From Candidatus Woesearchaeota archaeon (lineage in GTDB: Archaea > Nanobdellota > Nanobdellia > Woesearchaeales > UBA583): a stretch of 64,000 nt of DNA. The stretch spans positions 960,001 through 1,024,000 of the forward strand of contig OZ242164.1 of NCBI GenBank assembly GCA_965205335.1, written 5' to 3'. Each line of letters opens with the position of its first letter. Within the stretch, counting starts at the first letter, position 1. The position numbers and the translations under genes are program-made. Shown here piece by piece: positions 3,211 through 40,260 of the stretch. The notes beneath the pieces are model-generated. The model worked only from the letters and a program-made list of their open reading frames with translations. It had not been told where the DNA came from and searched no databases.

Positions 3211-3254
3211 ATCTAAAATAAATAAATATCACTTTATAAATCTTAGGTAACTCT

Positions 3255-3382
3255 GGCTCTGTCCGGAAATTCAAGAGAACTTAAAATATTGTATCAATAA
3301 AGCAACTTTTGACGAATAATTTTTTTCTTTGATTGAATATAGTTAGCATAGATTTTGGAAAAAGCAATTTCCGGACAGAGCC
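3255..3382 (+). mobile_element. 128-bp MITE copy 1 (IS1595-like ends)
   Basis: 17-bp TIR GGCTCTGTCCGGAAATT; 8-bp TSD GTAACTCT at 3247-3254 and 3383-3390. Confidence 0.95.
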
Positions 3383-3468
3383 GTAACTCTAAATTATAGA
3401 TTGTATACATAATTCTAAATTAAATCCTGATTAGAAACATATATAAATACAATCTCATTTTTTTAAAT

Positions 3469-3879
3469 ATGTCAGAGGTTAAATTAACACATGCCAGTTC
3501 CTTAAAGCCGGGAAGTTATATTCTAATTGATAATTCTCCATGTATTGTGAAAGATATTAGCACTTCAAGACCTGGAAAACATGGACACGCAAAGGTTAGA
3601 ATTAAAGCAACAGACATTATTTCCGGTTCAACTAAAGAGGTTGTAAAACCGGGACATGATAATGTGGAAGTTCCCATCATCTACAAAAAAGAGGGACAGG
3701 TTCTGTCAGTTAGCGAGGATTTAATTGAGTTAATGGATATGGAATCATTTGAAACCCTTAGTGCTCAGGTTAAAAATGTTGATGACCAGATTTCAGGGCA
3801 AATTGAGGCAGGGCAGACTGTTCTCTTCTGGGAAGTTATGGGTAAAATCCTAATTAAACAAATAAAGGAGGGAGCATAG
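3469..3879 (+). CDS. eif5a: Translation factor aIF5A
   Basis: Hypusine motif SRPGKHGHAK. Confidence 0.97.
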   Translation: MSEVKLTHASSLKPGSYILIDNSPCIVKDISTSRPGKHGHAKVRIKATDIISGSTKEVVKPGHDNVEVPIIYKKEGQVLSVSEDLIELMDMESFETLSAQVKNVDDQISGQIEAGQTVLFWEVMGKILIKQIKEGA

Positions 3880-3886
3880 ATAAAAA

Positions 3887-4057
3887 ATGGGAACTTTTCC
3901 TGAGGCTGAGGCTAGATTATTTGGTAGTGTGTATATATGCAGAAAGTGTGAGAGAAAGACCAGAGTACCAGTTAATAAAGTCCTTGCAGGCAAAGGAGTT
4001 TGTTCTAAATGTGGTTCCAAACAGTTAAGAGTTGTCAGAAAGAGATCTAAAAGTTAA
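3887..4057 (+). CDS. rpl40e: 50S ribosomal protein L40e
   Basis: Manual translation MGTFPEAEARLF...ICRKC...CSKCGSKQLR (56 aa). Confidence 0.9.
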   Translation: MGTFPEAEARLFGSVYICRKCERKTRVPVNKVLAGKGVCSKCGSKQLRVVRKRSKS

Positions 4058-4146
4058 GTAGGTTTGCTAATAGTCTTTCATCACAGATAATGTAACAAAA
4101 AGTTTATAAATAATAAGATTTGACATTTACATATTGAAATTAAAGA

Positions 4147-4512
4147 ATGGTAAGGTTTTTAAATTCAAGAAGGGGAAGAGAGGAGTTTATTGAGGACGAA
4201 ACAGGAGATTATCTTTCAATAACGGAATCTGATGTTGTTTCAGGGAGAGAAGACTCCCTTTTAGATGTTAGGGTGTTCGTTTTGGATGATTACGAGAACA
4301 TCCGGGAAATATTGGATTGTATTCGAGGTGATAAGACTATGTGCTTAATTGACATTCACCTTTTAAGAAATAAAGATCCTGATGAATTAAGAAGAGCAGT
4401 TGATAAACTTAGAAAAACAGTAGAGGCAATCTCAGGAGAATTAGTGGGCTTTCACGAAAACTGGATTTTATCAGTTCCTAAGAATGTTCATATTCATAAG
4501 GGTAAAAAGTAA
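4147..4512 (+). CDS. sepF: Cell division protein SepF
   Basis: Archaeal SepF-like core (ILDCIRGD...LIDI...ELRRAVDKLRK...ISGEL...ILSVPKNV). Confidence 0.8.
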   Translation: MVRFLNSRRGREEFIEDETGDYLSITESDVVSGREDSLLDVRVFVLDDYENIREILDCIRGDKTMCLIDIHLLRNKDPDELRRAVDKLRKTVEAISGELVGFHENWILSVPKNVHIHKGKK

Positions 4513-4535
4513 TTCTCTTATTTATTATTCTAATA

Positions 4536-5453
4536 TTATTTAACTTTGTAACTGAAATAATCATATGCAGATATAGTATTTTCAAAGAATTCCTTGGCTT
4601 CCTCCTCAATTTCTTTAATATCCTTGTATCTCTGGGAAAAATGTGTTATTAGAAGTGTTCCAATATTATTTTCCGCAGCAATCTGGGCGGTTTCGCGAGC
4701 ACTCATATGATCATATTCTTCAGCCTTATCTGCATGAGTTTTGTATATATAAGTTGCCTCCATTACTAAATAATCTGAATCCTTAACTAAAAGATTGATT
4801 TCTTTGCATGGTCTTGTATCAAATACAAATGAAATCTTCATACCTTTTTTCTTATACGTTAAATCCTCTGGCTTGATTTTCCTCCCATTAAACTCTATTG
4901 GAAGCCCCATCTTTGCTCTTGCTAATAAAGGTGATTTTTCAAGTCCCAATTCTTTAGCTTTATCTTTATCTATATTTAAGGTATCTTTTACCTTAAAAGA
5001 ATATCCAATGCAGGGAACACTATGATTTAACTTGGCGCAGTGAATTTCATAATCAGATTTATCAATAATTTTAAGAACTTGGGATGCCTTTGGTTTGTGT
5101 TCAAAAACCTCTATTTGGGCAAGTTTTCCTGTAATTGAACCTTTGAGTGTATGTTCTACAAATTTTTTGCTCTTAATTGGGCCATGAATTTCAATCTTAG
5201 TTACTCCATCTGTATTTGAAAGAGTCTGCAATAGTCCTGCAAGCCCTAAAACGTGATCTCCGTGCCAGTGTGAAATGAAGATTTTTTTAATCTTTCCAAT
5301 TGGGAGTTTCATAATTTTAACTTGCTTCTGTGTGTTTTCTCCACAGTCAAACAGGAAAATATTACCGTTATATTCAAGAGCAGTTGATAAATGGTTTCTA
5401 TCCTTTGTTGGGACCATGCAGGAAGTTCCTAAAAAATGCAGTTTATTTGTCAT
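4536..5453 (-). CDS. rnz: Ribonuclease Z
   Basis: FLGTS, FDCGE, HWHGDH, DTRP, EATY and THFSQRY motifs. Confidence 0.95.
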   Translation of the reverse strand: MTNKLHFLGTSCMVPTKDRNHLSTALEYNGNIFLFDCGENTQKQVKIMKLPIGKIKKIFISHWHGDHVLGLAGLLQTLSNTDGVTKIEIHGPIKSKKFVEHTLKGSITGKLAQIEVFEHKPKASQVLKIIDKSDYEIHCAKLNHSVPCIGYSFKVKDTLNIDKDKAKELGLEKSPLLARAKMGLPIEFNGRKIKPEDLTYKKKGMKISFVFDTRPCKEINLLVKDSDYLVMEATYIYKTHADKAEEYDHMSARETAQIAAENNIGTLLITHFSQRYKDIKEIEEEAKEFFENTISAYDYFSYKVK

Positions 5454-5496
5454 ATTTCTATCTCTTATAAGAATTAGTTGGATTTTATTTATAAGT

Positions 5497-6423
5497 TTAT
5501 TTTAAAAGAGTTGTTGGTGTAGAATCTGATATAATCCCGTTTTGAGTGCCAATTCCAAGTCTTTCAAGTAATTTTGGTTCTGGTCCATAATTTACAATAA
5601 TTGCATTTTCAAACTCTTTTTTAAGTTCTTCTGTAACATCCGGGTAATGTCCTATTTCATCAATAAATCCTATTTCCAAAGCCTTTGAGCCTAAAAATAT
5701 TTCCCCTGTTGCATATTTCTCAACTTCTCCATATGTCATATTGCGATTCATTGCTACATGATGTATGAAGTTTCTATGGATTTCATCTAAAATATCTTGG
5801 ATTATTCGCTCTTCCTCTTCTGTTGGTTCTCTAAAAGGCGAATTTAAATCCTTAAACTCTCCTGCTGTTTGTCTTCTGTATGAAATATTATATTCTTTAA
5901 TAAAATCCTCAAAACCAAGCCCGGCACTTGTTACTCCAATACTGCCAACAGCAGACATTCTTGATGCATATGTTTTATTTGCAGAAACTGCAATCCAGAA
6001 AGCTCCGCTAAGTCCCATATCATTAATGAGAGCATACACAGGTTTTTCCTTTTTCAATTCAATTATAGCGTTTGATATTTCCTCTGTTGCAACAGGAGAG
6101 CCTCCGGGAGAATTAATATCAAGAATTACTGCTTTTACTGAATCATCATCTTTGAAATCATATAATTGATTTGCAATCTCTCTTGAAGAAGAGGATTTTC
6201 CGTAGATGAGTGAATTTGTTTTCTCAGATAGAAGTGTTCCTTCAATTGGAAGTACTGCTATTTTAGGGGACAGGCTCATGCTCAAAGATGAGAACAAACT
6301 TGATAGAAGAAAAAATGCAATAAAAACCAAAAAGAACGTTTTAAAACTAAACCAACTTCGTTTATTTTGTTTACTTTCCTGTGGGTCTTTTCTGCCCTTT
6401 TCAAACTTAACATAATCAACCAT
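5497..6423 (-). CDS. sppA: Signal peptide peptidase SppA (S49)
   Basis: N-terminal TM; INSPGGS, SGAFWIA, GSIGV motifs. Confidence 0.92.
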   Translation of the reverse strand: MVDYVKFEKGRKDPQESKQNKRSWFSFKTFFLVFIAFFLLSSLFSSLSMSLSPKIAVLPIEGTLLSEKTNSLIYGKSSSSREIANQLYDFKDDDSVKAVILDINSPGGSPVATEEISNAIIELKKEKPVYALINDMGLSGAFWIAVSANKTYASRMSAVGSIGVTSAGLGFEDFIKEYNISYRRQTAGEFKDLNSPFREPTEEEERIIQDILDEIHRNFIHHVAMNRNMTYGEVEKYATGEIFLGSKALEIGFIDEIGHYPDVTEELKKEFENAIIVNYGPEPKLLERLGIGTQNGIISDSTPTTLLK

Positions 6424-6513
6424 ATTTTAGCGTATTAATTTGTGTTTATAAAACTTGTTTTATTTTTATGTGCAAAGAGTTACATTTTTAAATATGTGGT
6501 ATCTTGATTGTTT

Positions 6514-6771
6514 ATGGTTAAAGTTAAATTATACACGAAAACATATTGTCCGTATTGTCATGCGGCTTTGGATTTTTTTAAGGAACACAGAATTAAAGTT
6601 GAAAACATTGATGTAACAGATGATGAAACGCCTCTAAAAGAAATAGCTGATAAGACAAATAATCATAAAACAGTTCCCCAGATATTCATAAATTATGAAT
6701 TTATAGGTGGGACAGATGAACTATTTCAGAAATATGAAGCAGGAGAATTAGATAAAATATTGAAGAATTAA
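6514..6771 (+). CDS. Glutaredoxin
   Basis: CPYC active site; TVPQIFI and IGG motifs. Confidence 0.92.
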   Translation: MVKVKLYTKTYCPYCHAALDFFKEHRIKVENIDVTDDETPLKEIADKTNNHKTVPQIFINYEFIGGTDELFQKYEAGELDKILKN

Positions 6772-6805
6772 ACATAAGAGGAAATAAATTAATCATAGAA
6801 AAAAC

Positions 6806-7120
6806 TTAATTTTTTTGATAAAAAAACCCCTTTAAGTTGACAACTCTGTTTTCCATCCCATACTTATACACATTATAATTTGAAGAAAGAAAAAGTTCTT
6901 CAATTAAAGTTTCAGCAATTCTTCCTTTAATCATACCTTCTTTATTTTTCTTTTTTTTATCTGAAAGACCTTTCTCACCATCTGTTATCAATTCTCCTGA
7001 TGAAGATTCTTTTTGATGCTTTCTACATAACGGAAGATCATAGTTCTCAATAGAATATTTATACTCTTTCTCAGTAATATTTTTATTACAAGTGTTACAA
7101 TAATGGACTTTTAATGACAT
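6806..7120 (-). CDS. Zn-finger protein with apparent truncated PD-(D/E)xK nuclease N-terminus
   Basis: CxxC...CxxH; KGRIAETLIEELF...YNV resembles the first helix of restriction-like nucleases, but no catalytic core follows. Confidence 0.4.
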   Translation of the reverse strand: MSLKVHYCNTCNKNITEKEYKYSIENYDLPLCRKHQKESSSGELITDGEKGLSDKKKKNKEGMIKGRIAETLIEELFLSSNYNVYKYGMENRVVNLKGFFYQKN

Positions 7121-7201
7121 ATTTTATTTAAAAATCTCCAAGTTTATAAATGATTTGCTAAAAGTCAGTTTTTTTGAGTTATATATAACCCCAGCAACAA
7201 G

Positions 7202-7284
7202 TGTGAGGGAAGGGATTTGAACCCTCGAACCTTACGGACTGGAGCCTAAATCCAGCGCCTTTGACCTGACTTGGCGACCCCCAC
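7202..7284 (-). tRNA. tRNA-Leu(TAG)
   Basis: Anticodon arm CTGGA-TTTAGGC-TCCAG; long variable arm; T-loop. Confidence 0.93.
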
Positions 7285-7488
7285 AATATAAAACATATTT
7301 TTGAGTATTAAGAAATAACTTAATCTTGTTTAAAAATGTTTTGGGAATATTATTCTATTATCTATCTTGAGAGTATTGCTATATGAATTGAATTCCCTTG
7401 TTGATTATCTTAAATTAATTCCTTTCTTTTTTATTTGAATTGTTGAATAATCATTTAATAGCGCAAGTAGGTGGCAAGTAATTTCAAT

Positions 7489-8013
7489 TCATAATTTTTC
7501 AAGATAGTTTTCTAATTCCAAAGCAAACTTTTTTGCTCTATCTAAAGAAGTTTTTGCTTTTGATATCTTAATCTCTTCAGTAGATTCATACTGCAATTTA
7601 GACCTCTTTATTCTTTCAAAATCATAACTTTCAACTAAATTATTGGAAATCAACAATGCCTCTTCGCTTGCAATCTCATACTCATTTAAAATATAAGTAC
7701 TTAGTTTATCTTTAACTAAAACTATTAACGCATCAGATGTTATTTTATGTGCAATTTTATCTCCTACCTTATATCCTAACTTGTATAACACTGCATTTGC
7801 AAGATAAAACATAGAATAATAACTACTAACTATTACCCACAAACTTGAAGTATTATCTGTGTACAACTTTTGAGCAACATTTAGTGATTCATTATAATTT
7901 CTCATATAAGTTTCAAATATAATTCTCTTAAATTCTTCCTTTCTAATTAAATTTTGATTTAAGTATGATTTATAATTCCCTTTTGCCTCTTTTTCCCTAT
8001 TCTTATCAATCAC
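7489..8013 (-). CDS. HEPN domain protein
   Basis: SYYSMFYLANAVL and R-x4-Y (RSKLQY) typical of HEPN partners of MNTs; directly downstream of MNT. Confidence 0.75.
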   Translation of the reverse strand: MIDKNREKEAKGNYKSYLNQNLIRKEEFKRIIFETYMRNYNESLNVAQKLYTDNTSSLWVIVSSYYSMFYLANAVLYKLGYKVGDKIAHKITSDALIVLVKDKLSTYILNEYEIASEEALLISNNLVESYDFERIKRSKLQYESTEEIKISKAKTSLDRAKKFALELENYLEKL

Positions 8014-8014
8014 T

Positions 8015-8593
8015 TTAATAATACCTTTCTATTAATCTATAATAGTTCTCTATTCCACTAAGAATTATATTATTCTTCACTATCTCTGTTGCAACACTCT
8101 CCCTTTTGGAATTTAACATACTTGAGAATTCTTCAATTGTGAAATCTATAATATGTAAATTTATTGGTAACAATCTCAAGTTCATCTCTATATTTCTGGT
8201 TATTTCCTTATTATCTGAAATAATACATATATCAACATCTGAGTTCTTATTTTGAGTTCCTTTTGCATATGAGCCAAATAACAGAACAATAGAAAAAGGA
8301 TTTTCTATTTTTAAGAGATTTCTGATAATTGCTTTAATGTATTTATTTTTAGATATCTTATCTCTTCTATCATTTTCAACTTTTAATATCAAATCATCAA
8401 ATTTAAATGCAAATTGGATTTGACTTGTATTTCCTAGCTTATTTTGAATTATTAATTTTTTCTCTAACAGTTTCTTTACGTTTGTATGGACTAATTTATA
8501 ATCAGATTTAGCAATTTTGGATAATTCATTAATTGAGTAGGGCTTTTTATTTTCAATTAATATTTTTAGTAGTTTCTCTTGTATGTTTACCAT
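8015..8593 (-). CDS. HTH + minimal nucleotidyltransferase (MNT)
   Basis: N-terminal wHTH; LFGSYAKG...SDVDI motif. Confidence 0.88.
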   Translation of the reverse strand: MVNIQEKLLKILIENKKPYSINELSKIAKSDYKLVHTNVKKLLEKKLIIQNKLGNTSQIQFAFKFDDLILKVENDRRDKISKNKYIKAIIRNLLKIENPFSIVLLFGSYAKGTQNKNSDVDICIISDNKEITRNIEMNLRLLPINLHIIDFTIEEFSSMLNSKRESVATEIVKNNIILSGIENYYRLIERYY

Positions 8594-8641
8594 AACATAA
8601 TACTATGTATCTATTAACATATATAAATGTTTACTTTTTGA

Positions 8642-8769
8642 GGCTCTGTCCATAAATTCAAGAGGACTTAAAATATTGAATAAATAAAGTAATTTTTGAC
8701 AAATAATTTCTTTCCTTGATTGAATATAGTTAGCATAGATTTTGGAAAAAACAATTTATGGACAGAGCC
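8642..8769 (+). mobile_element. 128-bp MITE copy 2 (no TSD)
   Basis: TIR GGCTCTGTCCATAAATT; internal sequence matches copy 1; flanks CTTTTTGA and CATTAATA differ. Confidence 0.93.
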
Positions 8770-8859
8770 CATTAATATATTATAAATAAACTGCTGGTCT
8801 TGTAGTGACAGCATCAATTTTTAAATATATAATCAATTTCATACACACGAAATAGAAAA

Positions 8860-9111
8860 ATGGCAGGAAGAAAACCACTAAATAAAGTTAGAATGAATAT
8901 AAAGATAGACTCTGAGTTAAAGGAAATTTTAGATTCCAAGAAAATAGATAAATCCGCTTATATTAACCAAATTCTGTATAAGGAACTTGTTTTAGAAATT
9001 CATAGAAACCCCTCTCCCCCGTCTCTACTCTCAAATCCCAAATGTTCCGTCGCAGATTTGAACTGCGGACCACTCGATTATCAGTCGAGCATTCTAACCG
9101 GACTGAACTAA
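8860..9111 (+). CDS. Ribbon-helix-helix-like small protein, probably truncated; 3' end runs antisense into tRNA-Ile
   Basis: MAGRKPLNKVRMNIKIDSELKEILD...KSAYINQIL RHH-like pattern. Confidence 0.45.
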   Translation: MAGRKPLNKVRMNIKIDSELKEILDSKKIDKSAYINQILYKELVLEIHRNPSPPSLLSNPKCSVADLNCGPLDYQSSILTGLN

Positions 9112-9117
9112 CGGAAC
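9043..9117 (-). tRNA. tRNA-Ile(GAT)
   Basis: Anticodon arm CTCGA-CTGATAA-TCGAG. Confidence 0.94.
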
Positions 9118-9162
9118 ATTGCAAAAAATTGTTAGGGGAATTCTTATGAAATATTCCCCTAG

Positions 9163-9235
9163 CGCCTCATGCAGGACTCGAACCTGCGACCCCACGGTTA
9201 ACAGCCGTGTGCTCTACCTGCTGAGCTAATGAGGC
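9163..9235 (-). tRNA. tRNA-Asn(GTT)
   Basis: Anticodon arm CACGG-CTGTTAA-CCGTG. Confidence 0.94.
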
Positions 9236-9289
9236 ATACCAAAAAGAAAGCAGATTATTTTATAAAGTTTTTCTTCTTATATAAATATA

Positions 9290-10021
9290 ATGATAACAAA
9301 AGTTGATAACATAATTTTACTGGGCACATCACATGTTGCAACGCAGTCAGTAGAAGAAATAAAACAAGCCATTGAAAAATACAAACCAGAAGTTGTTGCA
9401 ATTGAACTAGACTATACAAGACTCAAATCTCTACTATCAAAAAATCCATCAAAAATGAAATCATCTATATTCACCTTATCAAAAGAATACGGATTTACAG
9501 GAGCACTATTTGCTAAACTTGCTCATTACGTCCAGCAAAGTGTCGGAAAAAATTTAAACATAGACCCTGGAGTTGATATGAAAACAGCATACGAAATTGC
9601 AAGAGAAAAAAAGATACCAACAGCTCTTATTGACCAGCACATTAAAATAACACTAAAAAAATTCTCAGACCTTCCATTTAGAAGAAAAATCTCTATGCTT
9701 GCAGGCATAGTAAAAAGCGGATTTAAAAAAGAAAACAAAAAATACCTAAACTTAAATATTGTTGATGGAGTACCCAATGAAAAAGCCATATCCAAGATGC
9801 TTGAAATTGTAGAAAAAGAAGTTAAAGATTTATACACAATTCTAATTGATGACAGAAACCATGTAATGTCAGACAAACTAATAAAGCTAAGAGAAAAACA
9901 CCAAACAGGTGACATATTAGCAGTTGTTGGAGCAGGACATGTTAAAGGAATGAAAAAAATACTAAAAGAAAAAATTGCTTTGGGAAACTCATTTAATTAC
10001 TCATTTACTGTAGAAATTTAA
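9290..10021 (+). CDS. TraB/PrgY family protein
   Basis: LLGTSHV, VAIELD, PGVDM, DDRNHVM and VVGAGH motifs. Confidence 0.9.
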   Translation: MITKVDNIILLGTSHVATQSVEEIKQAIEKYKPEVVAIELDYTRLKSLLSKNPSKMKSSIFTLSKEYGFTGALFAKLAHYVQQSVGKNLNIDPGVDMKTAYEIAREKKIPTALIDQHIKITLKKFSDLPFRRKISMLAGIVKSGFKKENKKYLNLNIVDGVPNEKAISKMLEIVEKEVKDLYTILIDDRNHVMSDKLIKLREKHQTGDILAVVGAGHVKGMKKILKEKIALGNSFNYSFTVEI

Positions 10022-15767: not shown

Positions 15768-15816
15768 ATAGAATTTCTAATTTAGACATTTATAAATCTT
15801 ATCACATATTTTTTTA

Positions 15817-16738
15817 TGTGTAATCAAGTAGCATATGCTACCAATCAATTTTATTGAAGACTTCAGCAGGAGTTTTCTGATGAAGGCTAAAATGAGGTCT
15901 AAATTGATTGTAATTAAAACGAAATAACTCTAAATCATTATTATAAAAAGAGCATTCACTTTTAATAGTACCAAAAAGTCTTTCGACTTTTCCATTCGTT
16001 TGAGGTCTTTTGACCTTTGTACGAATGTGTTTAAGATTTCTTCTTCTACACCAAACATCAAATTTTGAATACTTTGATTTCCCGCCATAGGGACTTCCAT
16101 TATCACTAATTATCTGTTTGGGAGTTCCAAACTGGGAAATCAAAGTATCTAAGAACTGCGTAACTACAAATGTGGTGACTGTTGGAACATGTAAAATACC
16201 TAAGCAGTAACGTGAACAGTCATCAATTACTGCAATTACTTTACCTGATTCACCAAACTCACTATCATCAATATGCCATAGAGAGTTTGGATTTTCACGT
16301 TCGAAACGAACGTATTTAGCTCTTTGCCCACGATTATGTTCTTTACGAGTTAAACCATTACATTTTAGAACTTTATTGATTGTAGTATGAGATAATTGAA
16401 CAGATTTAATCTTTTGCTTTAGCTTTAGTGCTCCAACCAGTTTTATTACGTAACTCAATTATCTCTTTTTCAGCTTCTTGAGTTACTTTGTAATAAACTT
16501 TATTAGGGATTTTAGATTTGTCTTGAAAATTCCAAATTCCATCATTAAATCGTTTATACCAACGCTTTAATGTTGAAATATGAAAAGTTCTACTGAACTT
16601 TTTCTCTAAAAGTATTTGACATTTAGAGTACGAATACTTACATTTTAACTTTATGAATTCACGGCGTAAATGTTCTTTTTTCATAAAAATTAGAAAAATT
16701 CTAATTTTATATGGTAGCATATGCTACTTTACTGCACA
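15817..16738 (-). mobile_element. IS481-family element, copy A (frameshifted transposase)
   Basis: TGTG...CACA ends containing GTAGCATATGCTAC; 15-bp TSD TCACATATTTTTTTA at 15802-15816 and 16739-16753. Confidence 0.92.
15838..16684 (-). pseudogene. IS481 DDE transposase with 2-bp deletion at about 16433
   Basis: WHID, IDDCSR, SDNG, PQTNGKVER; split into two ORFs; CC here versus CCCC in copy B. Confidence 0.88.
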
Positions 16739-16804
16739 TCACATATTTTTTTAACTGTGGAGTAAAAGAAAACTTTATAAATTCTAAACATCAACAAGAT
16801 TATT

Positions 16805-28444: not shown

Positions 28445-29172
28445 TCAAATAATTATTTGTAATAAGATAGATAATATGTGAAATATTTATAATAACTATG
28501 AAATGAAATTCTATTTATATAGTTTGCTAATCGTTTTTTATTGTGCAGTAAAGTAGCATATGCTACCAATCAATTTTATTGAAGACTTCAGCAGGAGTTT
28601 TCTGATGAAGGCTTAAATGAGGTCTAAATTGATTGTAATTAAAACGAAATAACTCTAAATCATTATTATAAAAAGAACATTCACTTTTAATAGTACCAAA
28701 AAGTCTTTCGACTTTTCCATTCGTTTGAGGTCTTTTGATCTTTGTACGAATGTGTTTAAGATTTCTTCTTCTACACCAAACATCAAACTTTGAATACTTT
28801 GATTTCCCGCCATAGGGACTTCCATTATCACTAATTATCTGTTTGGGAGTTCCAAACTGGGAAATTAAAGTATCTAAGAACTGCGTAACTACAAATGTGG
28901 TGACTGTTGGAACATGTAAAATACCTAAGCAGTAACGTGAACAGTCATCAATTACTGCAATTACTTTACCTGATTCACCAAACTCACTATCGTCAATATG
29001 CCATAGGGAGTTTGGATTTTCACGTTCGAAACGAACGTATTTAGCTCTTTGCCCACGATTATGTTCTTTACGAGTTAAACCATTACGTTTTAGAACTTTA
29101 TTGATTGTAGTATGAGATAATTGAACAGATTTAATCTTTTGCTTTAGCTTTAGTGCTCCCCAACCAGTTTTA

Positions 29173-30156
29173 TGTGTTGTCCTAATTCTTTTTCCCACTT
29201 TTATTACCTCCAATCATTTTTATAAACCTACCTAATGTCCATGGCATTAATTCACGCCAGAACACTTGTTCAGGCGTATCAAAATCCAAGCTACCATGCG
29301 GTCTATGATTATACCAGTCCATAAATTCATTAAATGTGTTGAATTTCTGTCTATGAAGTTCATAGGTATGATTCCACTTCTCAAACTTACCATTGGTTTG
29401 AGGGTGTTTATATCTACATTTTGAATGTGTAATTCCTAACCTGGCAAGGACTCTTTGGAACTCAGATATGCCCTGCTGTTTACCCTCTTGCTTATTTGCA
29501 TAAAACTGACTGCCTCTATCAGTCAAACAAATATCAATTGGTCTTATATTCAAATACGTTTTGTAAGCTTGTTTGATCAACCCAATATTGTGTTTTGCTT
29601 CTTGTTTTTTGAACTCGCCTCCACAAAGGATTTTCCTTGATTTATCATCTAAGACCGCACACATCCACATTTGCAAATGTGAATTATAGTGCCAATCCAT
29701 ATGAACCATATCTAAAGACCATGGTTTTTCATAACGAATCCATGGCTTTCTTCTCTTTTGCTTTTTAGGATTGGCAGTTGCTTTATTATTTGCAAGTAAC
29801 ACAATATGAACATAGTTATTTGCAATTTTAAAGTTTTCTTTCTTACGCAGATATTGAGAAATGTAATTTGCTCCAAACCCTAGTTTTGAATGCAAAGAAA
29901 GAATTCTTCTTTCTAAACTTCTAGGATAGACTCTTTTTGGTTTCATGCCATTCTTCTGCAAAACAGGAAGTAACCCTGTTTTCTTAAATTCTAAGAAAAG
30001 TTGATTAACTCTTCTTTTACTAATATTGAACTGCTTAGCAATAAAAACAGATGAAACACCTTTATTCTTACGCTTAATTATCTTTTCAATGTCCAAAGCA
30101 TTTAGTTTCATAAAAGACTCAATTTCCAAAGTGGGAAATTTTTTGCGGACAACACA
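29173..30156 (-). mobile_element. Nested IS481-family element (different transposase)
   Basis: TIR TGTGTTGTCC-N9-TTCCCACTTT; 15-bp TSD CCCCAACCAGTTTTA at 29158-29172 and 30157-30171. Confidence 0.93.
29182..30111 (-). CDS. IS481-family DDE transposase
   Basis: VHMDW, LDDKSR, TDRGSQF, HPQTNGKFE; start MKLNALD lies inside the element. Confidence 0.9.
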   Translation of the reverse strand: MKLNALDIEKIIKRKNKGVSSVFIAKQFNISKRRVNQLFLEFKKTGLLPVLQKNGMKPKRVYPRSLERRILSLHSKLGFGANYISQYLRKKENFKIANNYVHIVLLANNKATANPKKQKRRKPWIRYEKPWSLDMVHMDWHYNSHLQMWMCAVLDDKSRKILCGGEFKKQEAKHNIGLIKQAYKTYLNIRPIDICLTDRGSQFYANKQEGKQQGISEFQRVLARLGITHSKCRYKHPQTNGKFEKWNHTYELHRQKFNTFNEFMDWYNHRPHGSLDFDTPEQVFWRELMPWTLGRFIKMIGGNKSGKKN

Positions 30157-30553
30157 CCCCAACCAGTTTTATTACGTAACTCAATTATCTCTTTTTCAGC
30201 TTCTTGAGTTACTTTGTAATAAACTTTATTAGGGATTTTAGATTTGTCTTGAAAATTCCAAATTCCATCATTAAATCGTTTATACCAACGCTTTAATGTT
30301 GAAATATGAAAAGTTCTACTGAACTTTTTCTCTAAAAGTATTTGACATTTAGAGTACGAATACTTACATTTTAACTTTATGAATTCACGGCGTAAATGTT
30401 CTTTTTTCATAAAAATTAGAAAAATTCTAATTTTATATGGTAGCATATGCTACTTTACTGCACAGGAAATTAACATGAGAGAGAGGAAATAAATTAACTA
30501 TTGAACCACTTGAATAATAATAATAATATTTTATCATAAAATACTCCATTAAC

Positions 30554-30901: not shown

Positions 30902-30992
30902 TTTTATTATATAAATTTATATACCTAAACTTTTAAATATTTATCTTTTATCAGTTCATTCGTACCCCTCTAACTTAACAACTCATCGAAAG

Positions 30993-31120
30993 GGCTCTGT
31001 CCGGAAATTCAAGAGAACTTAAAATGTTATATAAATAAAGCAACTTTTGACGAATAATTTTTTTCTTTGATTGAATATAGTTAGCATAAATTTTGGAAAA
31101 AGCAATTTTCGGACAGAGCT
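30993..31120 (+). mobile_element. 128-bp MITE copy 3
   Basis: TIRs with minor mismatches; 8-bp TSD ATCGAAAG. Confidence 0.95.
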
Positions 31121-31167
31121 ATCGAAAGGATACTTTTATAAACCAAATGAAATTATTTTTAGGTATT

Positions 31168-31392
31168 ATGAAATCAGATAGACCGTTTGACAGTCTTATG
31201 GAAAGTATAGGTAAAGAGGTGTCAGTTAAATTAAAGGACGGACTTTTGTATACTGGTAAATTGGTTTCTTTTGATATGCACCTAAATATTGTTTTAGAGG
31301 ATGTTTGCGAGAACTCAGAGAATATTAATGAGAAGGTTTTAATCAGAGGAGATATGATTTCAACAATTAAACATAATAAATCTGATATGTAA
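31168..31392 (+). CDS. Sm/Lsm RNA-binding protein
   Basis: [19 protein letters not shown]; upstream of L37e. Confidence 0.93.
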
Positions 31393-31393
31393 A

Positions 31394-31561: not shown

Positions 31562-31565
31562 ATTT

Positions 31566-34028: not shown

Positions 34029-34544
34029 CTAAAGGAATAAGTAAGGGATAACCACATAAACTAGAATTTGACTAATTAATATCGGAATTAAATATAATGC
34101 ATATTTTACAAACTCTTTTTCTTTAAATAAAAAAATCAGGTAATTCAGATTAAAGCTTAACAAAAATAAAATTGAGTATAAAAGTAAATTTACATCAACA
34201 ACTGAAATAAAAGATTCTACCAGGGAGAGTTCAGCAGAAACTCTGGTAATTTCATTCATTATTCCAATAATTAGAACAAATACAGACAATAAAAATGCAG
34301 ATGTGATGATTGAACTCTTTAATCTAAATTCAAAACTATAATTAAATCCATCTTGTAACCATTTATATAAGAACCCAAAAGGCAGAGATATAATAATTAA
34401 GAAGATGTAATTTGTAATTGAACTTAAATCCCCAAATGAAATCCCAAATATAACTGCTAACATTATTAAAATATATAATATTAGAATTACAAAAGAGAGA
34501 AATAATTTGACTTTGCTTTTTTTGTTTGATTCTCTTCCTTCCAT
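34029..34544 (-). CDS. Hypothetical membrane protein
   Basis: About five hydrophobic segments. Confidence 0.6.
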   Translation of the reverse strand: MEGRESNKKSKVKLFLSFVILILYILIMLAVIFGISFGDLSSITNYIFLIIISLPFGFLYKWLQDGFNYSFEFRLKSSIITSAFLLSVFVLIIGIMNEITRVSAELSLVESFISVVDVNLLLYSILFLLSFNLNYLIFLFKEKEFVKYALYLIPILISQILVYVVIPYLFL

Positions 34545-34814
34545 TCTAATTTAGAAATTCAAATATATATGAATTTTTCCACGCATTATTAAAAGGAATG
34601 CTTTGTCAATAAGTGCAAATGCTAGAAAAACTCAATTATCTATTAATCTTAATATTATCACAATCCGAGATTAGTAAAGTGTTGGTCATAACTGCCGTAG
34701 TTCCCGAGCAACCTGCCCACACAAAAGATACACTAAGACACAATACTATTTCAAATTATTTTACCTGAAGAGTAGTATATAATTAATATAAATTCATTTT
34801 CTAATATAAAAATT

Positions 34815-36461
34815 ATGAGTGTAAAAGTTGCATATTTTAGTACTGAGATTGGATTGAAATCAGAGATTAAGACATATTCTGGTGGCTTGGGAATTTTGGC
34901 AGGGGATACAATTAAGGCGATGGCAGATTTGAATTTTCCATTCTGCGCCTTAACTCTCCTCTACAAAGAAGGGTTTCTTAAACAAAGAATAATTGATGAT
35001 ACTCAGGTTGAAGAGGATGATAACTGGGATTTTTTAAGTATATTAGAGGATACTCAAAAAGAATGTGAAGTGGAAATTGCAGGAATTCCAATTTATGTGA
35101 AAATCTGGAAATACGTGCATAAAGGGCTTAGAGGACATGAAATTCCAATATATTTTCTTGATACAGATTTGGAGAAGAATCCAAAATGGACTAAGAAAAT
35201 CACAAATAAGCTTTATCAGGGGAACAGGTTATATCAGGAAATTGTTTTAGGGATTGGAGGAATTAAAGCATTAGAAGTTCTTGGGCATAATGAAATTGAA
35301 AAGTATCATATGAATGAGGGACACTCATGTTTTTTAACACTGCAGCTTTACAAAGATTTAGGAGAGAAAAATGGTTGGGATGGTGATGCCGTAAGAAAAA
35401 AATGTGTATTTACAACTCATACTCCAATTCCTGCAGGACATGATAAATTTGATTATAAGCATGTATATGAAGCGTTTACAGATGATACTAAATTAATACC
35501 TTGGCATATTGAGAAAATCGCAGGTTTTAATGAATTAGATACAACAAAACTTGCAATGAGTTTTAGTTCTCATATAAATGCGGTTTCAAAAATCCACTGC
35601 AAAATAACTAAGGAAATGTTTCCAGATTTTGATATTCATTATATTACAAACGGGGTTCACTGCGAGTCATGGGCAAGTTCATATATGAAGGAGGTGTTTG
35701 ACAGGAACATCAAAGGGTGGAGAGATGATTATACTAAGTTAACCAAAATATTTAGTGTGCCAAATGAAGAAATATTAGATGCTCATCTAAAAGCTAAGCA
35801 TGATATGATTAAATTTGTTAATGAACATAATATCATAGATAGTAAGTTAAAAGAGGGAGTTTTAACAGTTGGGTTTGCAAGAAGATTTATTGAATATAAG
35901 GATGCAGAATTAGTTTTTAAGAATCTTGACAGGTTAAAAGAGATAGGAGATAAGGTGCAGTTTGTATTCTCAGGCAAAACTCATCTAAATGATGGGATGG
36001 GAAAAGCAATTATGAAAAAGGTCATAGAATATGCAAGAGAATTAAAGAATGATGTTGCAATTGCATTTATTGAGAATTATGATATGAATATCGGGAAGAT
36101 TCTTGTTGGTGGATGTGATTTATGGCTAAACACTCCCATTCCATACCATGAGGCATCAGGAACATCAGGAATGAAAGCCGCAACGAATGGATGTTTGCAT
36201 TTTTCAACTCTTGACGGTTGGGCAATCGAGAGTTTTGAGAGAAATGGAGGAGGATTTCCAATTTATACATATGAGGATTTAATTACAACTCTTGAATATA
36301 AGATAATCCCAAAATTCTCTTGTGAGTTATCAACTGCATGGGTGTCTGAAATGAAACTTGCAATAGGGAATTCCGCTTCATATTTTAATACTCATAGAAT
36401 GGCAAAAGAGTATATTGAAAAGACGTATGAGATGGATATTAATGATTTTAATCAACCATAA
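34815..36461 (+). CDS. Alpha-glucan phosphorylase
   Basis: YSGGLGILAGD, HMNEGH, FTTHTP, EASGTSGMK. Confidence 0.95.
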   Translation: MSVKVAYFSTEIGLKSEIKTYSGGLGILAGDTIKAMADLNFPFCALTLLYKEGFLKQRIIDDTQVEEDDNWDFLSILEDTQKECEVEIAGIPIYVKIWKYVHKGLRGHEIPIYFLDTDLEKNPKWTKKITNKLYQGNRLYQEIVLGIGGIKALEVLGHNEIEKYHMNEGHSCFLTLQLYKDLGEKNGWDGDAVRKKCVFTTHTPIPAGHDKFDYKHVYEAFTDDTKLIPWHIEKIAGFNELDTTKLAMSFSSHINAVSKIHCKITKEMFPDFDIHYITNGVHCESWASSYMKEVFDRNIKGWRDDYTKLTKIFSVPNEEILDAHLKAKHDMIKFVNEHNIIDSKLKEGVLTVGFARRFIEYKDAELVFKNLDRLKEIGDKVQFVFSGKTHLNDGMGKAIMKKVIEYARELKNDVAIAFIENYDMNIGKILVGGCDLWLNTPIPYHEASGTSGMKAATNGCLHFSTLDGWAIESFERNGGGFPIYTYEDLITTLEYKIIPKFSCELSTAWVSEMKLAIGNSASYFNTHRMAKEYIEKTYEMDINDFNQP

Positions 36462-37263
36462 GACTTCCTCCATATGCCTCAATGGGAAAGTCTTTTTGGA
36501 CAAATTCTATTTTGCATTCTGTGTTATTGAAATACTGCATTAGAGATTTTTCAAATAAATTTAAAGAATGTAGAAAACCTCCAGCTATGAAAATTTTATT
36601 CAATTCAAGGGTTTTTGATAGGGATAAGAGAACAATCCCCAAATTCCCCCCAAATTCTTCAAATATTAGTTTAGATTCATTCTTAAAGGAATGCAGTTCA
36701 TGAACATTAGAGATTTTTAAACCCATTTCTTTTGCTTTGTTAAGTAAAAATCTTTTTGATATTTTATCTTCAATTGAATAATCAGAGTGAAAAAAATTAG
36801 TGTGGGAAAAATCAGAACTGAAATCAGATTTTGTATATAATTTTCCATTGATATACAGGCTTATTCCTATTCCAGTTCCAAGAGTTATAAATGCTATATT
36901 CTTATCGTGAATTGATTCTTTTAATGCGTAGTAAAGAAGATATGAGTCATTGCAAACTTTTACTAAACATTTATATTTTCGAGAAACCACATCATTGATT
37001 CCATAGCCGTTTATTATTTTTAAGTTTGGGGCATCAAGCACAATTCCTTTTTCAACTCTTCCACAAACTCCTACACCAATTCCATTTATTTTATAATCTT
37101 TTCTTAAATCATCAATTATTTTAAATAAGACTTTTTCAAAGTTTGCTATGTTATCATTTGGTGTTTTAGTTTTAATTTTTCTTACAATTATATTAGAACA
37201 TCTTAAAACTCCTTTAATATTTGAACCACCAATGTCTATACCGATATAATATTTTTCATTCAT
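36448..37263 (-). CDS. ROK family sugar kinase
   Basis: GIDIGGS, ND, TLGTGIG. Confidence 0.85.
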   Translation of the reverse strand: MNEKYYIGIDIGGSNIKGVLRCSNIIVRKIKTKTPNDNIANFEKVLFKIIDDLRKDYKINGIGVGVCGRVEKGIVLDAPNLKIINGYGINDVVSRKYKCLVKVCNDSYLLYYALKESIHDKNIAFITLGTGIGISLYINGKLYTKSDFSSDFSHTNFFHSDYSIEDKISKRFLLNKAKEMGLKISNVHELHSFKNESKLIFEEFGGNLGIVLLSLSKTLELNKIFIAGGFLHSLNLFEKSLMQYFNNTECKIEFVQKDFPIEAYGGSLMVD

Positions 37264-37266
37264 TTT

Positions 37267-37638
37267 TTAACTATAAGAATTCCTAAGAGTTTGTCTTTTA
37301 TATGGTCTATATTGCCAAGTTTCTAGGATATAATCCAGAACATCTCTACAATAGCGAAACATATAAATTGCAATTCTATCTGTTTCTTCTTCTGTTCTAC
37401 TCAAATTAAAATGATCATCTCTGTAATGAACAAATTCATGTAGCAATATTATTAATTCATCGTCCAAGTTCTCACAATTTCTTGGGAAAATTTTTATCCT
37501 TTCTTCACTTCTATCATACAACCCTTTTAATTCTTTTATTTTCTGCTCTTTTCCATAATAAATTTTACTAATATCAAAATATTCATCTATAAATAGTTTA
37601 AATACTTCTTCTTTGGTTACTGTTTCTAATCTACTCAT
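37267..37638 (-). CDS. Small HExxH (zincin-like) protein
   Basis: LLHEFVH...TEEET. Confidence 0.55.
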   Translation of the reverse strand: MSRLETVTKEEVFKLFIDEYFDISKIYYGKEQKIKELKGLYDRSEERIKIFPRNCENLDDELIILLHEFVHYRDDHFNLSRTEEETDRIAIYMFRYCRDVLDYILETWQYRPYKRQTLRNSYS

Positions 37639-37770
37639 CCTCTATGTTTTGTATCATTTTAATTTTTTGGTAAAGGTGTTTTTCTACCTTTTATATAGAT
37701 AAACCCTCTTATAGTTTTTCTATGTATTAAGAAATCTTGATTTGAGATATTATAAATGTTTTGTAAAATA

Positions 37771-37898
37771 GGCTCTGTCCATAAATTGTTTTTTCCAAAA
37801 TCTATGCTAAGTATATTCAATCAAAGAAAGAAATTATTTATCAAAAGTTGCTTTATTGATACAATATTTTAAGTTCTCTTGAATTTATGGACAGAGCC
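37771..37898 (-). mobile_element. 128-bp MITE copy 4 (inverted)
   Basis: TIR GGCTCTGTCCATAAATT; 8-bp TSD GTAAAATA. Confidence 0.95.
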
Positions 37899-37993
37899 GT
37901 AAAATATTAAAATAAAAAATGCTTATAATTGTACATTTATTTCCTAAGTCTTTAATGCTACAGTCTGCTAAAGAATATAGATTTTTAGTTAGA

Positions 37994-38182
37994 TTATTTT
38001 TCTTTTTTGTAAACTTCTAATTCAAGTTTTCCTTTGTCATATTCTTCTTGGGCTATTTTTACGTAGTCCTTTGAAATCTTTACTCCCTTTGAAACTTTAA
38101 CTTTGGGTTTGTCGCCCTGAGCTAATTCAAGGGCTCTTGCTGATAGTAATCTTGTTTTCTCAAATTTGTTTAGTTTTTCCAT
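37994..38182 (-). CDS. rpoK: RNA polymerase subunit K (Rpo6)
   Basis: NKFEKTRLLSARALELAQG. Confidence 0.9.
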   Translation of the reverse strand: MEKLNKFEKTRLLSARALELAQGDKPKVKVSKGVKISKDYVKIAQEEYDKGKLELEVYKKEK

Positions 38183-38186
38183 TTTT

Positions 38187-38684
38187 TTATTCACTTTCTT
38201 TTTTTTCTTCCTCTGCATGTTCTAAAACTCTAATGTCATCAATTGTCATTGTTATTGGAATCGGAACAGCCATATTTATCGGTTCAACAACAACTCCCTC
38301 TTTACCTGGCACCACACGTACAACTCTTGCCCTATCACCTTTGAAAGGACCTACAATTATTTCAACAATATCTCTCTCAGATACCATTATCTGCTCCATG
38401 CCTTTTTCAAAGTATTTCTCAAGGTCTTTAAAATCAATTTGATCTCTTATTACACCTTTGCTGTTAGGGACCCCACGGGTTGCATCAATTAGTTTGGTTA
38501 GAGATTCAACTTCAGCAAAAACATATCCTTTAATGTTCTCAACTCGAAATACGCTGTAAATTCCATGGTCTTCTTTGCTTAACAGGGATTTTTGCAAAGA
38601 ATCCAAGAATTTGTCTTCGCGACCAATAGATGTTCTGACTACATAATATTCATGGTTCTCTTTTGTATCATTCTCACTATCCAT
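38187..38684 (-). CDS. spt5: Transcription elongation factor Spt5
   Basis: NGN domain (IKGYVFAE) and KOW (VEIIVGPFKG). Confidence 0.94.
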   Translation of the reverse strand: MDSENDTKENHEYYVVRTSIGREDKFLDSLQKSLLSKEDHGIYSVFRVENIKGYVFAEVESLTKLIDATRGVPNSKGVIRDQIDFKDLEKYFEKGMEQIMVSERDIVEIIVGPFKGDRARVVRVVPGKEGVVVEPINMAVPIPITMTIDDIRVLEHAEEEKKESE

Positions 38685-38685
38685 T

Positions 38686-38958
38686 TTATCCGAGTAATCT
38701 CTTTAATATGTTGCGCATGTCCATTCTTTTAGTAAAGAATAATCCAAAGGTAGAGAATAGTCCTAGGCATTTTTCTTCTTCTCCAAAACATCCCTTTAAT
38801 AAGAACTGCCATAATAATTCAATAATAAAGCCAATTAATCCAATTACTAAGAAACCTATGGCAACAATTTTTAAGGTTAGAAAATAATCTTTTTTAGTTG
38901 GCTTTCTTGTAACCTTCCATACTCTTTTCATATCAGAAATGCTTTTTGCTATGTTCAT
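38686..38958 (-). CDS. secE: Protein translocase SecE/Sec61-gamma
   Basis: RVWKVTRKP...GFLVIGLIGFII; upstream of spt5. Confidence 0.9.
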   Translation of the reverse strand: MNIAKSISDMKRVWKVTRKPTKKDYFLTLKIVAIGFLVIGLIGFIIELLWQFLLKGCFGEEEKCLGLFSTFGLFFTKRMDMRNILKRLLG

Positions 38959-39067
38959 TTATTTTTATTTAAAGAAGTTTTTGAGAAATACTAAAAACTA
39001 ACTCTCTAAACTCTTTGTATATAAAAAACTATTTCACATTTATAAAATTTGTTATAGTTAGGTTCTG

Positions 39068-40009
39068 TGTGTAGTGCCATGACATATGTCACCACCTCAA
39101 CTTTCTCTGAAAGTTGTCAAACTCATAAGAAGGAGTTTGACTAAATAAGCTCTGATGAGGTCTAAAAACATTATATCTATACCTAAATAACTCTAGATCA
39201 TTGTTGCAATACCCAATTTCCCTGTCAATTGTTCCAAACAAACGTTCCACTTTTCCGTTTGTTTGAGGACGGTTAACTTTAGTTCTAATGTGCTTAATCC
39301 TTCTTCTTTGACACCATTTATCGAACTTAGACTTCTTACTTCTAAGTCCATATGGTGCTCCATTATCACTGATTATTTGAGTAGGATTTCCAAATTTCTT
39401 GATTAAATTATCAAGAAATTGTGTTACAATTGGTGTTGTAACAGTTGGAACATGTAAAATACCTAAACAATAACGAGTGGCATCATCAATGACCGCAATT
39501 ATTTTACCTTTTTCACCAAATTCACTGTCATCAATGTGCCAAAGTGAATTTGAGTGTTTACGTTCGAAACGAACGTATTTAATCAGAGACCCTCTATTTC
39601 CCTCTTTACGAGTTAAATGATTCTTTCTAAGAACTCTATTAATGGTTCTCTCTGAAATATCCAGAATAGGCAGGAAGTTATGAAGCTTTTTAGATCCCCA
39701 ACCAGTTTTATATCGAAGATTTAAAATTGCTTTCTCATCTTCTAAAGTAACTTTGTAATAGATCTTGTTTGGTCTTGTAGACTTATCTTGATAATCCCAT
39801 ATTTCTTTCTCAAAACGGTGTTGCCAACGTTTTAAAGTACGAATACTTACAAAGTATTTGCACTCCTCAGCAAGTATTTTCTTGCATTTAGAATAAGAGT
39901 TTTGTTTAACTCTTAGCTTTATGAAAACTTTCCTAATTTCGTATTTTTTCATAAAGTTAACAAGAATTGTTAACTTTTAGATTGGTGACATATGTTATGG
40001 CACCACACA
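39068..40009 (-). mobile_element. IS481-family element, copy C (relative of A/B)
   Basis: 27-bp imperfect TIR TGTGTRGTGCCATRACATATGTCACCA; no TSD. Confidence 0.9.
39089..39952 (-). CDS. IS481-family DDE transposase (intact)
   Basis: WHIDD, IDDATR, SDNG, PQTNGKVER. Confidence 0.92.
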   Translation of the reverse strand: MKKYEIRKVFIKLRVKQNSYSKCKKILAEECKYFVSIRTLKRWQHRFEKEIWDYQDKSTRPNKIYYKVTLEDEKAILNLRYKTGWGSKKLHNFLPILDISERTINRVLRKNHLTRKEGNRGSLIKYVRFERKHSNSLWHIDDSEFGEKGKIIAVIDDATRYCLGILHVPTVTTPIVTQFLDNLIKKFGNPTQIISDNGAPYGLRSKKSKFDKWCQRRRIKHIRTKVNRPQTNGKVERLFGTIDREIGYCNNDLELFRYRYNVFRPHQSLFSQTPSYEFDNFQRKLRW

Positions 40010-40020
40010 TGTAGTTTTCA

Positions 40021-40148
40021 GGCTCTGTCCATAAATTGTTTTTTCCAAAATCTATGCTAAATATATTCAATCAAAGAAGAAAATTACTTATCAAAAATCA
40101 TTTTATTTATACAACATTTTAAGTTCTCTTGAATTTATGGACAAAGCC
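40021..40148 (-). mobile_element. 128-bp MITE copy 5 (inverted)
   Basis: TIRs with one mismatch; 8-bp TSD AGTTTTCA. Confidence 0.95.
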
Positions 40149-40260
40149 AGTTTTCAGATAGGTTTATAAAGTTCTTACTTTAAAAAAAGAAATTATTGAT
40201 GTCTTAAAGCAATTCTAATTAAAATATATAACTTTTTATATAGTATATAACACACAATAC

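Follow-up and report, generated by a model that had tools for sequence, protein, structure and literature searches.

How does a mobile element come to lie at one exact distance from a TATA box, copy after copy? The question is raised by a 64-kb stretch of DNA from a Candidatus Woesearchaeota archaeon (contig OZ242164.1, positions 960,001–1,024,000; the window), which contains five copies of a 128-bp miniature inverted-repeat transposable element (MITE) with inverted ends GGCTCTGTCC...GGACAGAGCC. A sequence-only reading of the window had placed one end of every copy exactly 14 bp from TTTATA and had proposed that archaeal TATA-binding protein (TBP) and transcription factor B (TFB) guide insertion. 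We followed the element through its genome, a single contig of 1,199,749 bp with 30.9% G+C, and into related genomes; feature coordinates below are positions in the window, and those marked 'genome' refer to the whole contig. Integration proved to be site-specific, at the upstream edge of archaeal core promoters, on the side of the TFB recognition element (BRE).

Integration at the upstream edge of core promoters

Alignment of the flanks of the five window copies revealed an invariant TATAAA that ends exactly 14 bp from one element end in 5/5; read outward, TTTATA begins at offset 14 in all five, and the 14 bases separating the MITE end from the TATA box differ in each. Copy 1 (3255–3382, 128 bp) is flanked by the 8-bp duplication GTAACTCT (3247–3254 and 3383–3390), from which a 6-bp BRE-side spacer (3241–3246) leads to the TATA octamer TTTATAAA of the rps2 promoter (3233–3240, minus strand); the rps2 gene (2611–3210, minus strand; Ribosomal_S2, 3.4e-15) starts with an ATG 22 nt after the octamer. 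Copy 2 (8642–8769, 128 bp) lies 14 bp from an octamer that reads TTTATATA on the minus strand (8620–8627), 26 nt before the ATG of a nucleotidyltransferase gene (8015–8593, minus strand; NTP_transf_2, 9e-11). Its flanks, CTTTTTGA and CATTAATA, form no duplication, and a search for a recombination partner that would explain the loss gave only a 3.5-kb composite and an 894-bp derivative. Copy 3 (30993–31120; duplication ATCGAAAG at 30985–30992 and 31121–31128) adjoins the motif GAGTTGTTAAGTTAGAGGGG on its far side (last base 30984) and sits beside the octamer TTTATAAA (31135–31142, plus strand) of an LSM/Sm gene (31168–31392, plus strand; LSM, 6.6e-16), whose ATG follows after 25 nt.

The remaining two copies have the same arrangement with no gene start at leaderless distance. 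Copy 4 (37771–37898; duplication GTAAAATA at 37763–37770 and 37899–37906) is 14 bp from an octamer reading TTTATAAT on the minus strand (37749–37756), and the first open reading frame (ORF) after it (37267–37638, minus strand; no Pfam match) starts 110 nt away. Copy 5 (40021–40148; duplication AGTTTTCA at 40013–40020 and 40149–40156) is 14 bp from TTTATAAA at 40163–40170 (plus strand), which points at the 3' end of the gene for cytidylate kinase, convergent in orientation (40261–40911, minus strand); the flanks of this octamer have promoter-like BRE polarity (score +3.7). Perfect 8-bp duplications are thus present at 4/5 window copies. On all of these details, namely the spacing in five of five copies, the four duplications, the three ATG distances in the ORF calls and the lack of a leaderless start beside copies 4 and 5, the sequence-only reading had been exact.

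The spacing holds throughout the genome. The end pattern picks out 148 ends; a second family, B, accounts for 19, which leaves 129 ends of family A, the family of the 128-bp MITE. TTTATA begins at offset 14 in 53/129, against 0.54 expected from a chance rate of p = 0.0042 per intergenic position and orientation (binomial p = 6e-90), and every other offset was found at two ends at most; the genome-wide offset plot that the sequence-only reading had proposed as a check therefore has a sharp peak and is not flat. Complete elements (n = 47) comprised 36 MITEs of 127–129 bp, 5 copies of a 1030-bp insertion sequence (IS) and 6 copies of a 117-bp MITE. A perfect duplication was preserved around 32/47, and in 30 of these 32 an octamer matching TTTATAAA in at least 7/8 positions lay exactly duplication + 6 bp away, on one side and never on both (background rate 0.0081, p = 8e-52). 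One of the two exceptions is the second MITE of a stack and has its duplication in common with the MITE that adjoins the TATA box. Among all complete elements, 42/47 have the octamer at the expected offset. Either MITE end may be the one next to the box, with similar frequency (12 versus 16), and the genome-wide element alignment singles out the distance to the TATA box, not the duplicated sequence, as the selected feature; both points had been anticipated from the five window copies. We rejected the possibility that the TATA box belongs to the element, because the box is found beyond the duplication, the 14 bases in between vary and either end can face it.

The landmark has the form of a promoter. 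TTTATA starts 29–35 nt before the start codon in 221/1105 crude ORFs, most often at −29, and is seldom found at other offsets, which is the pattern of leaderless archaeal promoters. When the empty sites of 26 family A insertions were reconstructed, they displayed the same BRE/TATA profile as 151 unoccupied promoters: the BRE is A-rich, with A at −3 in 26/26 occupied sites versus 86% of the empty promoters, T is avoided at −7 in both groups, and both have a start codon signal at about +29 to +31. C or G at −7, the last duplicated base, was found in 69% of occupied sites versus 38% of empty promoters. Because TTTATAAA is its own reverse complement, the side on which an element lies is informative. 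Where an occupied site is flanked on one side by a leaderless gene, the element lies on the gene-distal side in 34/34 cases, and a polarity score trained on empty promoters (correct for 91%) places it upstream at 34/34 occupied gene promoters and at 23/25 occupied sites without a called gene. Insertion is thus on the BRE side, and therefore spares the BRE, the TATA box and the leaderless start codon. In families A–D the near cut falls 5–7 bp upstream of the octamer, coinciding with the upstream end of the BRE, and the far cut at 14, 15, 20 or 22–23 bp, by family; the cuts of family A, at 6 and 14 bp, lie where the sequence-only reading had put them, at the outer edge of the BRE with the core promoter intact. 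In solved archaeal TBP–TFB–DNA complexes, TFB occupies this end of the BRE.

TTTATAAA occurs 411 times in the genome, and 59 of these sites have an element end at the family-specific offset: 34/193 of those with a leaderless gene, 24/135 intergenic sites without a called gene and 1/83 inside called genes. The class without a gene includes promoters of RNA genes and small ORFs, for example that of RNase P RNA, and the perfect octamer is enriched at occupied sites (28/47 events). One occupied octamer, at genome 606084, is followed by sequence resembling the 5' part of RNase P RNA (GGGAGGAAAGTCC), which we take to be its 5' motif; if this identification holds, RNA-gene promoters are also targets. 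At eight palindromic TTTATAAA sites, leaderless ORF starts lie 27–40 nt off on both sides; these may be bidirectional promoters with a common box, and 0/8 are occupied.

Element families that share the landmark

The autonomous partner of the MITE lies outside the window, as the sequence-only reading had stated, and is a 1030-bp IS with the MITE's ends and one 304-aa ORF, present as three identical copies, one 89% identical and one frameshifted. That reading had expected a parent of the IS1595 family (ISPna2 group). A parent with the MITE's ends does exist, but the family does not fit: its transposase is a DDE_Tnp_1 protein (PF01609, 8.9e-22; 78.3 bits versus a cut-off of 23), and the IS1595-type DDE domain, PF12762, has 0 matches in the whole genome, which rules IS1595 out. 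The features cited for it, 8-bp duplications and GGC ends, are present and are not exclusive to IS1595. In the IS5 family, the IS903 group makes 9-bp and the ISH1 group 8-bp duplications. The best NCBIfam model for the 304-aa protein is that of IS5 (NF033579), at 109.1 bits versus a cut-off of 140. The 128-bp element is a non-autonomous derivative (MITE) of this IS5-like element: it is short and non-coding, has 36 copies, begins with 17–20 nt that match the ends of the 1030-bp IS and makes 8-bp duplications, which were found at 26 family A events. Positions 11–12 of the inverted ends read GG, AT or GA in the MITE and IS copies, mostly co-varying between the two ends; the intact 1030-bp copies have GA (the three identical ones) or AT (two), and a GG-ended IS was not seen in the genome.

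The landmark is also used, with duplications of other lengths, by a sister family of IS5-like type and by IS481-like elements, which are unrelated. Family B has ends GGCTTTGTAC and consists of a 117-bp MITE and a 1664-bp IS, which encodes a 274-aa DDE_Tnp_1 protein related to that of family A (PF01609, 1.7e-24; best NCBIfam model again NF033579, 131.8 bits versus 140) and a SWIM-finger ORF. Its duplications are 9 bp long and 7/19 of its ends have TTTATA at offset 15 (p = 1e-12), so that its spacing from duplication to box is 6 bp, as in family A (8 + 6). These elements resemble the IS5 family in a size of about 1 kb (the 1030-bp IS), their single DDE_Tnp_1 transposase of about 300 aa, their GGC-starting inverted ends and their 8- or 9-bp duplications, and both A and B differ from it in scoring below the NCBIfam IS5 cut-offs.

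Family C is a 945-bp IS with termini TGTGTAG...CTACACA and an rve-type transposase (PF00665, 2.7e-11; 44.1 bits versus 32.6). Its duplications of 14 or 15 bp are arranged 14 + 6 or 15 + 5 from the octamer; TTTATA is at offset 20 in 7/36 pattern matches (p = 2e-10), and several further copies reach offset 20 once a stacked MITE is removed. Family D, also IS481-like, has five copies, including a nested one in the window. A 15–16-bp duplication with TTTATAAC or TTTATAAA 7 nt beyond it is preserved in two; in two others the duplication is absent and a TATA-like octamer lies 20 nt (one copy) or 22 nt (the other) from the end. The rve-type core, TGT...ACA termini and 14–16-bp duplications of C and D are IS481 traits, and the IS481 model NF033577 was the best for both, at 180.7 (C) and 151.6 (D) bits versus a cut-off of 224. 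Between the transposases of A/B and those of C/D, DDE_Tnp_1 versus rve, no similarity was detectable (E >= 1.8), and no module was found in common among the transposases of families A, B, C, D and a further family, K; the only similarities were A with B, C with D and a weak one between the cores of C and K.

The window itself holds several IS481-like copies. A 942-bp family C element (39068–40009, minus strand; transposase 39089–39952, minus strand) has an octamer at 39039–39046, 21 nt from its left end. A degenerate copy (15817–16738, minus strand) is flanked by the 15-bp duplication TCACATATTTTTTTA (15802–15816 and 16739–16753), with an octamer at 15789–15796, 20 nt from its end (15 + 5). 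A third (28542–30464, minus strand), with a TATA-like TTTATATA at 28514–28521, 20 nt from its left end, is interrupted in its transposase gene by the nested family D element (29173–30157), which has a 15-bp duplication and no TATA box nearby and belongs to the few insertions that are not at a promoter. Many IS6-like ends (GGTTCTGTT...) also lie 14 nt from TATA-like octamers. Their pattern is noisy (164 matches, most of them false), three pairs read by eye fit 9 + 5, and the ends are tied to a 355-aa IS6-like transposase in one subtype only; we do not count this family as shown.

Relatives of the 1030-bp IS, with transposases 25–48% identical, were located in genomes labelled Candidatus Woesearchaeota and Nanoarchaeota, and a TATA octamer lay at offset 14 or 15 in 11/14 loci with a findable end (L024 repeats the flank of L005 and is counted once; L003, L012, L018 and L026–L028 have no recognisable end). 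Locus L024 is on a 6.4-kb contig labelled Bdellovibrionales bacterium, where an archaeal-type IS with a flank identical to that of L005 has TTTATATA at offset 14; this contig has probably been mis-binned. The pattern GGACAGAGCC-N(0-30)-TTTATA has 38 matches in the genome under study, 37 of them with a gap of 14, and 16 matches in 8/19 further genomes from its genus, where the gap is 14 in 12, 15 in one and 16, 19 and 22 in the others; the backwards control gave 0 matches. Across the order it was matched in 72/401 genomes, against 4 matches in all for the backwards control. Among the 149 matches listed outside the genus, tallied by hand with one unpublished genome's match left out and 88 further matches falling outside this set, the gap was 15 in 86, 14 in 14, 17 in 15 and 16 in 7, and 27 were spread over 17 other gaps; many with gap 17 read TTTTTATA. 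The IS481-like relatives in the order are weaker and supportive only: in about 11 assessable loci, an octamer of at least 7/8 lay at 20–22 nt in four, weaker TATA-like boxes were found in five more and one was clearly without.

Single sites have been re-used by different families, producing stacks in which each member is flanked by the same short repeat; stacks with one common duplication are at genome 664537–665624 and 34049–38751. At genome 173445–176942, a 3.5-kb composite of a 1030-bp IS, 2.3 kb of other DNA and a MITE is flanked as a whole by a single 8-bp duplication, ATATAAAC, with TTTATAAA 6 bp beyond, and appears to have reached its promoter site in one piece. IS6-like-ended elements at genome 664673–665488, 1044577–1045492 and 827255–828633 carry non-transposase ORFs (one for a repeat protein of 196 aa; another, of 132 aa, contains a DTGA motif) and have the same TATA-linked position, stacked with MITEs. 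The motif GAGTTGTYAACTTAAAGGGG (core AGTTG-N-CAACT) lies exactly 14 nt from an octamer, or 8 nt from the far end of an intervening MITE or IS, at window 30965–30984 and at genome 30954, 39990, 57306, 112460, 173436, 404468, 894634, 896169 and 966846; in the window region only about 55 nt are repeated (BLAST), and the motif could be the end of a further element family or an upstream regulatory site severed by the MITE. Repeated DNA makes up 17.5% of the genome. Apart from IS elements, the stretch from genome 280000 to 405000 contains large families of surface-protein-like genes that are repeat-rich, cysteine-rich or acidic, with segments repeated up to about 36-fold.

Bound promoter or bare sequence

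We give about an even chance to the reading that what the transposases find is a promoter to which TBP and TFB are bound, or the geometry that these impose on the DNA, and not bare sequence. Under this model, the transpososome would dock against the TFB/BRE side of the bound promoter, and its nearer active site would attack the first accessible position beyond the BRE. The placement itself is shown: the IS5-like DDE transposase integrates the MITE on the side of the BRE by staggered cleavage 6 and 14 bp upstream of the octamer, with the 8 bp in between duplicated and the BRE, TATA box and leaderless start codon untouched. Docking of this kind would be a DNA-transposon counterpart of the docking of the yeast element Ty3 on TFIIIB, with harmless insertion in a gene-dense genome as its outcome. 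We favour the model because unrelated transposases converge on an oriented, one-sided landmark. This landmark is outside the duplication although either element end may face it, the near cut meets the BRE at the end occupied by TFB, and Ty3 offers a precedent. The TFB core of the host is homologous to the TFB of solved TBP–TFB–DNA complexes and to Brf1 of TFIIIB.

The strongest rival dispenses with host proteins: each transposase, or a DNA-binding part of it, would itself recognise BRE and TATA and cut at a fixed distance, the spacing having been tuned through selection acting on the elements so that the host promoter survives. We regard this as a serious contender, at roughly one chance in three. 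Strong target specificity of prokaryotic insertion sequences usually reflects sequence read-out, and the enrichment of the perfect octamer, the A at −3 in every one of the 26 sites, the C/G bias at −7 as a hint of an enzyme's own preference, the equal occupancy of octamers with and without a leaderless gene and the targeted octamers that face gene 3' ends all speak for it. It requires, though, that at least two unrelated lineages, DDE_Tnp_1 and rve, with no common N-terminal module, evolved recognition of the same asymmetric 14-bp module with the same side and a near-equal distance. A symmetric transpososome that reads its own target would also not usually rely on a one-sided landmark outside the duplication, open to either element end. 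A site common to several unrelated DDE enzymes would also be expected if the junction between A-rich BRE and flexible TATA were by its intrinsic shape a generic hot spot for DDE strand transfer, with neither host protein nor sequence recognition, and DDE transposases and integrases favour deformable or bent target DNA. We consider this improbable: the centre of the duplication varies, from about 10 bp from the octamer (8-bp duplications) to about 13 bp (14–15-bp duplications), the 1-bp precision of 30/32 events exceeds usual shape preferences, and other equally AT-rich 8-mers abound in the genome. Least probable, to the point of being barely credible, is that near-random or AT-biased insertion was filtered by selection, the survivors being those that spare promoters and genes. 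Coding density is about 86% (crude calls), just 1 of the 83 TTTATAAA sites inside called genes is occupied, and insertions between TATA box and start codon would be lethal for many genes, all as such a filter predicts. Selection alone fails because positions further upstream are equally harmless: insertion 7, 8, 10 or 30 bp upstream would do as well, yet 30/32 lie at exactly duplication + 6. Past the insertion point, the median length of free non-coding sequence is 87 bp; 25/30 cases have 20 bp or more and 21/30 have 50 bp or more. This room, together with the exact spacing, rules selection out as the sole explanation. The MITE is also almost never in the repeated, largely neutral 17.5% of the genome except where stacked at promoter sites, and the spacing is identical in other species.

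Several observations weigh against the bound-promoter model itself. Productive promoters do not appear to be preferred over mere sequence, octamers with a gene and without one being equally occupied, although the latter class includes promoters of RNA genes and small ORFs; and some targeted octamers face the 3' ends of genes or tRNAs (window copy 5; genome 34026 and 147201). The near cut is not constant between families (5, 6 or 7 bp). A transposase domain that reads BRE and TATA would give the same pattern, and direct read-out predicts the enrichment of the perfect octamer as well. Selection could contribute to the one-sidedness. The promoters were taken from consensus and position relative to crude ORF calls, not from mapped transcript starts. 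Tethering by TBP/TFB is an unproven proposal drawn from the sequence pattern, strengthened by the convergence of unrelated transposases on one oriented landmark. A co-fold of TBP, the TFB core and the transposase gave a score that was not specific relative to one control and counts neither way, and the model of the 304-aa transposase, built from a 6-row alignment, was unusable (mean pLDDT 44.7). The sequence data fit both the bound promoter and direct read-out.

Precedents and meaning

The closest precedent is Ty3, whose intasome is described as contacting TBP within TFIIIB, with TFIIIB required (10.1101/2021.07.27.453949). Like the elements described here, Ty3 integrates with near-base-pair precision relative to TBP and a TFIIB-family factor at a TATA-type promoter (TFIIIB comprises TBP, Brf1 and Bdp1, at yeast genes that RNA polymerase III (Pol III) transcribes) and thereby harmlessly in a dense genome; the IS481-like elements even carry the same rve-type core. 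Ty3 differs in being a long-terminal-repeat retroelement that inserts at the transcription start of Pol III genes, downstream of TATA, whereas the elements here are DNA transposons and MITEs that insert upstream of the BRE at the ordinary promoters of genes for proteins and RNAs. For Ty3, dependence on the factor is proven; what is observed here is a fixed, oriented distance from the factor's binding site. Dictyostelium and yeast retrotransposons are described as having converged on tRNA genes as safe sites in gene-dense genomes (PMC6101501, PMC5006619). As far as these sources describe them, they are alike in that unrelated elements meet at one transcription-complex landmark, and they differ in being eukaryotic retroelements at Pol III genes, with windows sometimes of tens of bp, in contrast to archaeal DNA transposons that are exact to 1–2 bp.

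Among prokaryotic elements, Tn7 is directed to attTn7 by its own selector TnsD and inserts at a single chromosomal site in one orientation, leaving the adjacent gene intact. It resembles the present elements in keeping a fixed distance to one side of a protein-bound site and sparing the neighbouring gene; here, by contrast, hundreds of promoters are open to insertion in both orientations, and the 1030-bp IS has no accessory gene. The archaeal IS481 elements ISMac4 and ISA0963-1 have TGT...ACA termini, an rve-type DDE transposase and duplications of about 15 bp, as families C and D do, and the part of PMC10045372 available to us is silent on target choice. Promoter- or TATA-linked targeting by the IS5 family was not found in the literature searched, nor was any description of TATA- or promoter-linked insertion in archaea, in a search that did not extend to supplementary site lists. 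Two recent overviews, on IS in archaea and on MITEs in prokaryotes, were covered by word search: in the text available for PMC13343696 there were 0 occurrences of 'TATA', 'promoter' and 'target site', and in that for PMC11602168, which places a Woesearchaea genome among the MITE-densest of archaea, 0 of 'TATA'. Safe-haven targeting of a transcription complex is thus a known kind of behaviour from eukaryotic retroelements; new are its setting in archaea, its use by DNA transposons and MITEs, the ordinary BRE/TATA promoters and the involvement of several families at once.

We propose, with a confidence that falls just short of even, that the TBP–TFB-bound core promoter is a docking platform used independently by at least two and perhaps three unrelated DDE superfamilies (IS5-like, IS481-like and possibly IS6-like) order-wide in DPANN archaea, which would be the first promoter-complex-guided transposition in prokaryotes. 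Because IS481 shares its rve core with Ty3 and TFB is a Brf1 homologue, integrases could even have an ancient connection with TBP/TFIIB-family factors. A 304-aa transposase, a 128-bp substrate, TBP and TFB would make a simple, testable system for how a transpososome reads a transcription complex, and possibly a tool for promoter-proximal insertion in archaea. As element ends mark BRE/TATA boxes, they would also supply a free genome-wide promoter map for uncultivated archaea. For the host, such targeting would explain how a 1.2-Mb genome can hold 17.5% repeats with few broken genes. If the proposal is true, safe-haven targeting of the basal transcription machinery is not confined to eukaryotic retroelements, and archaea with genomes of about 1 Mb would have a cut-and-paste solution of their own.

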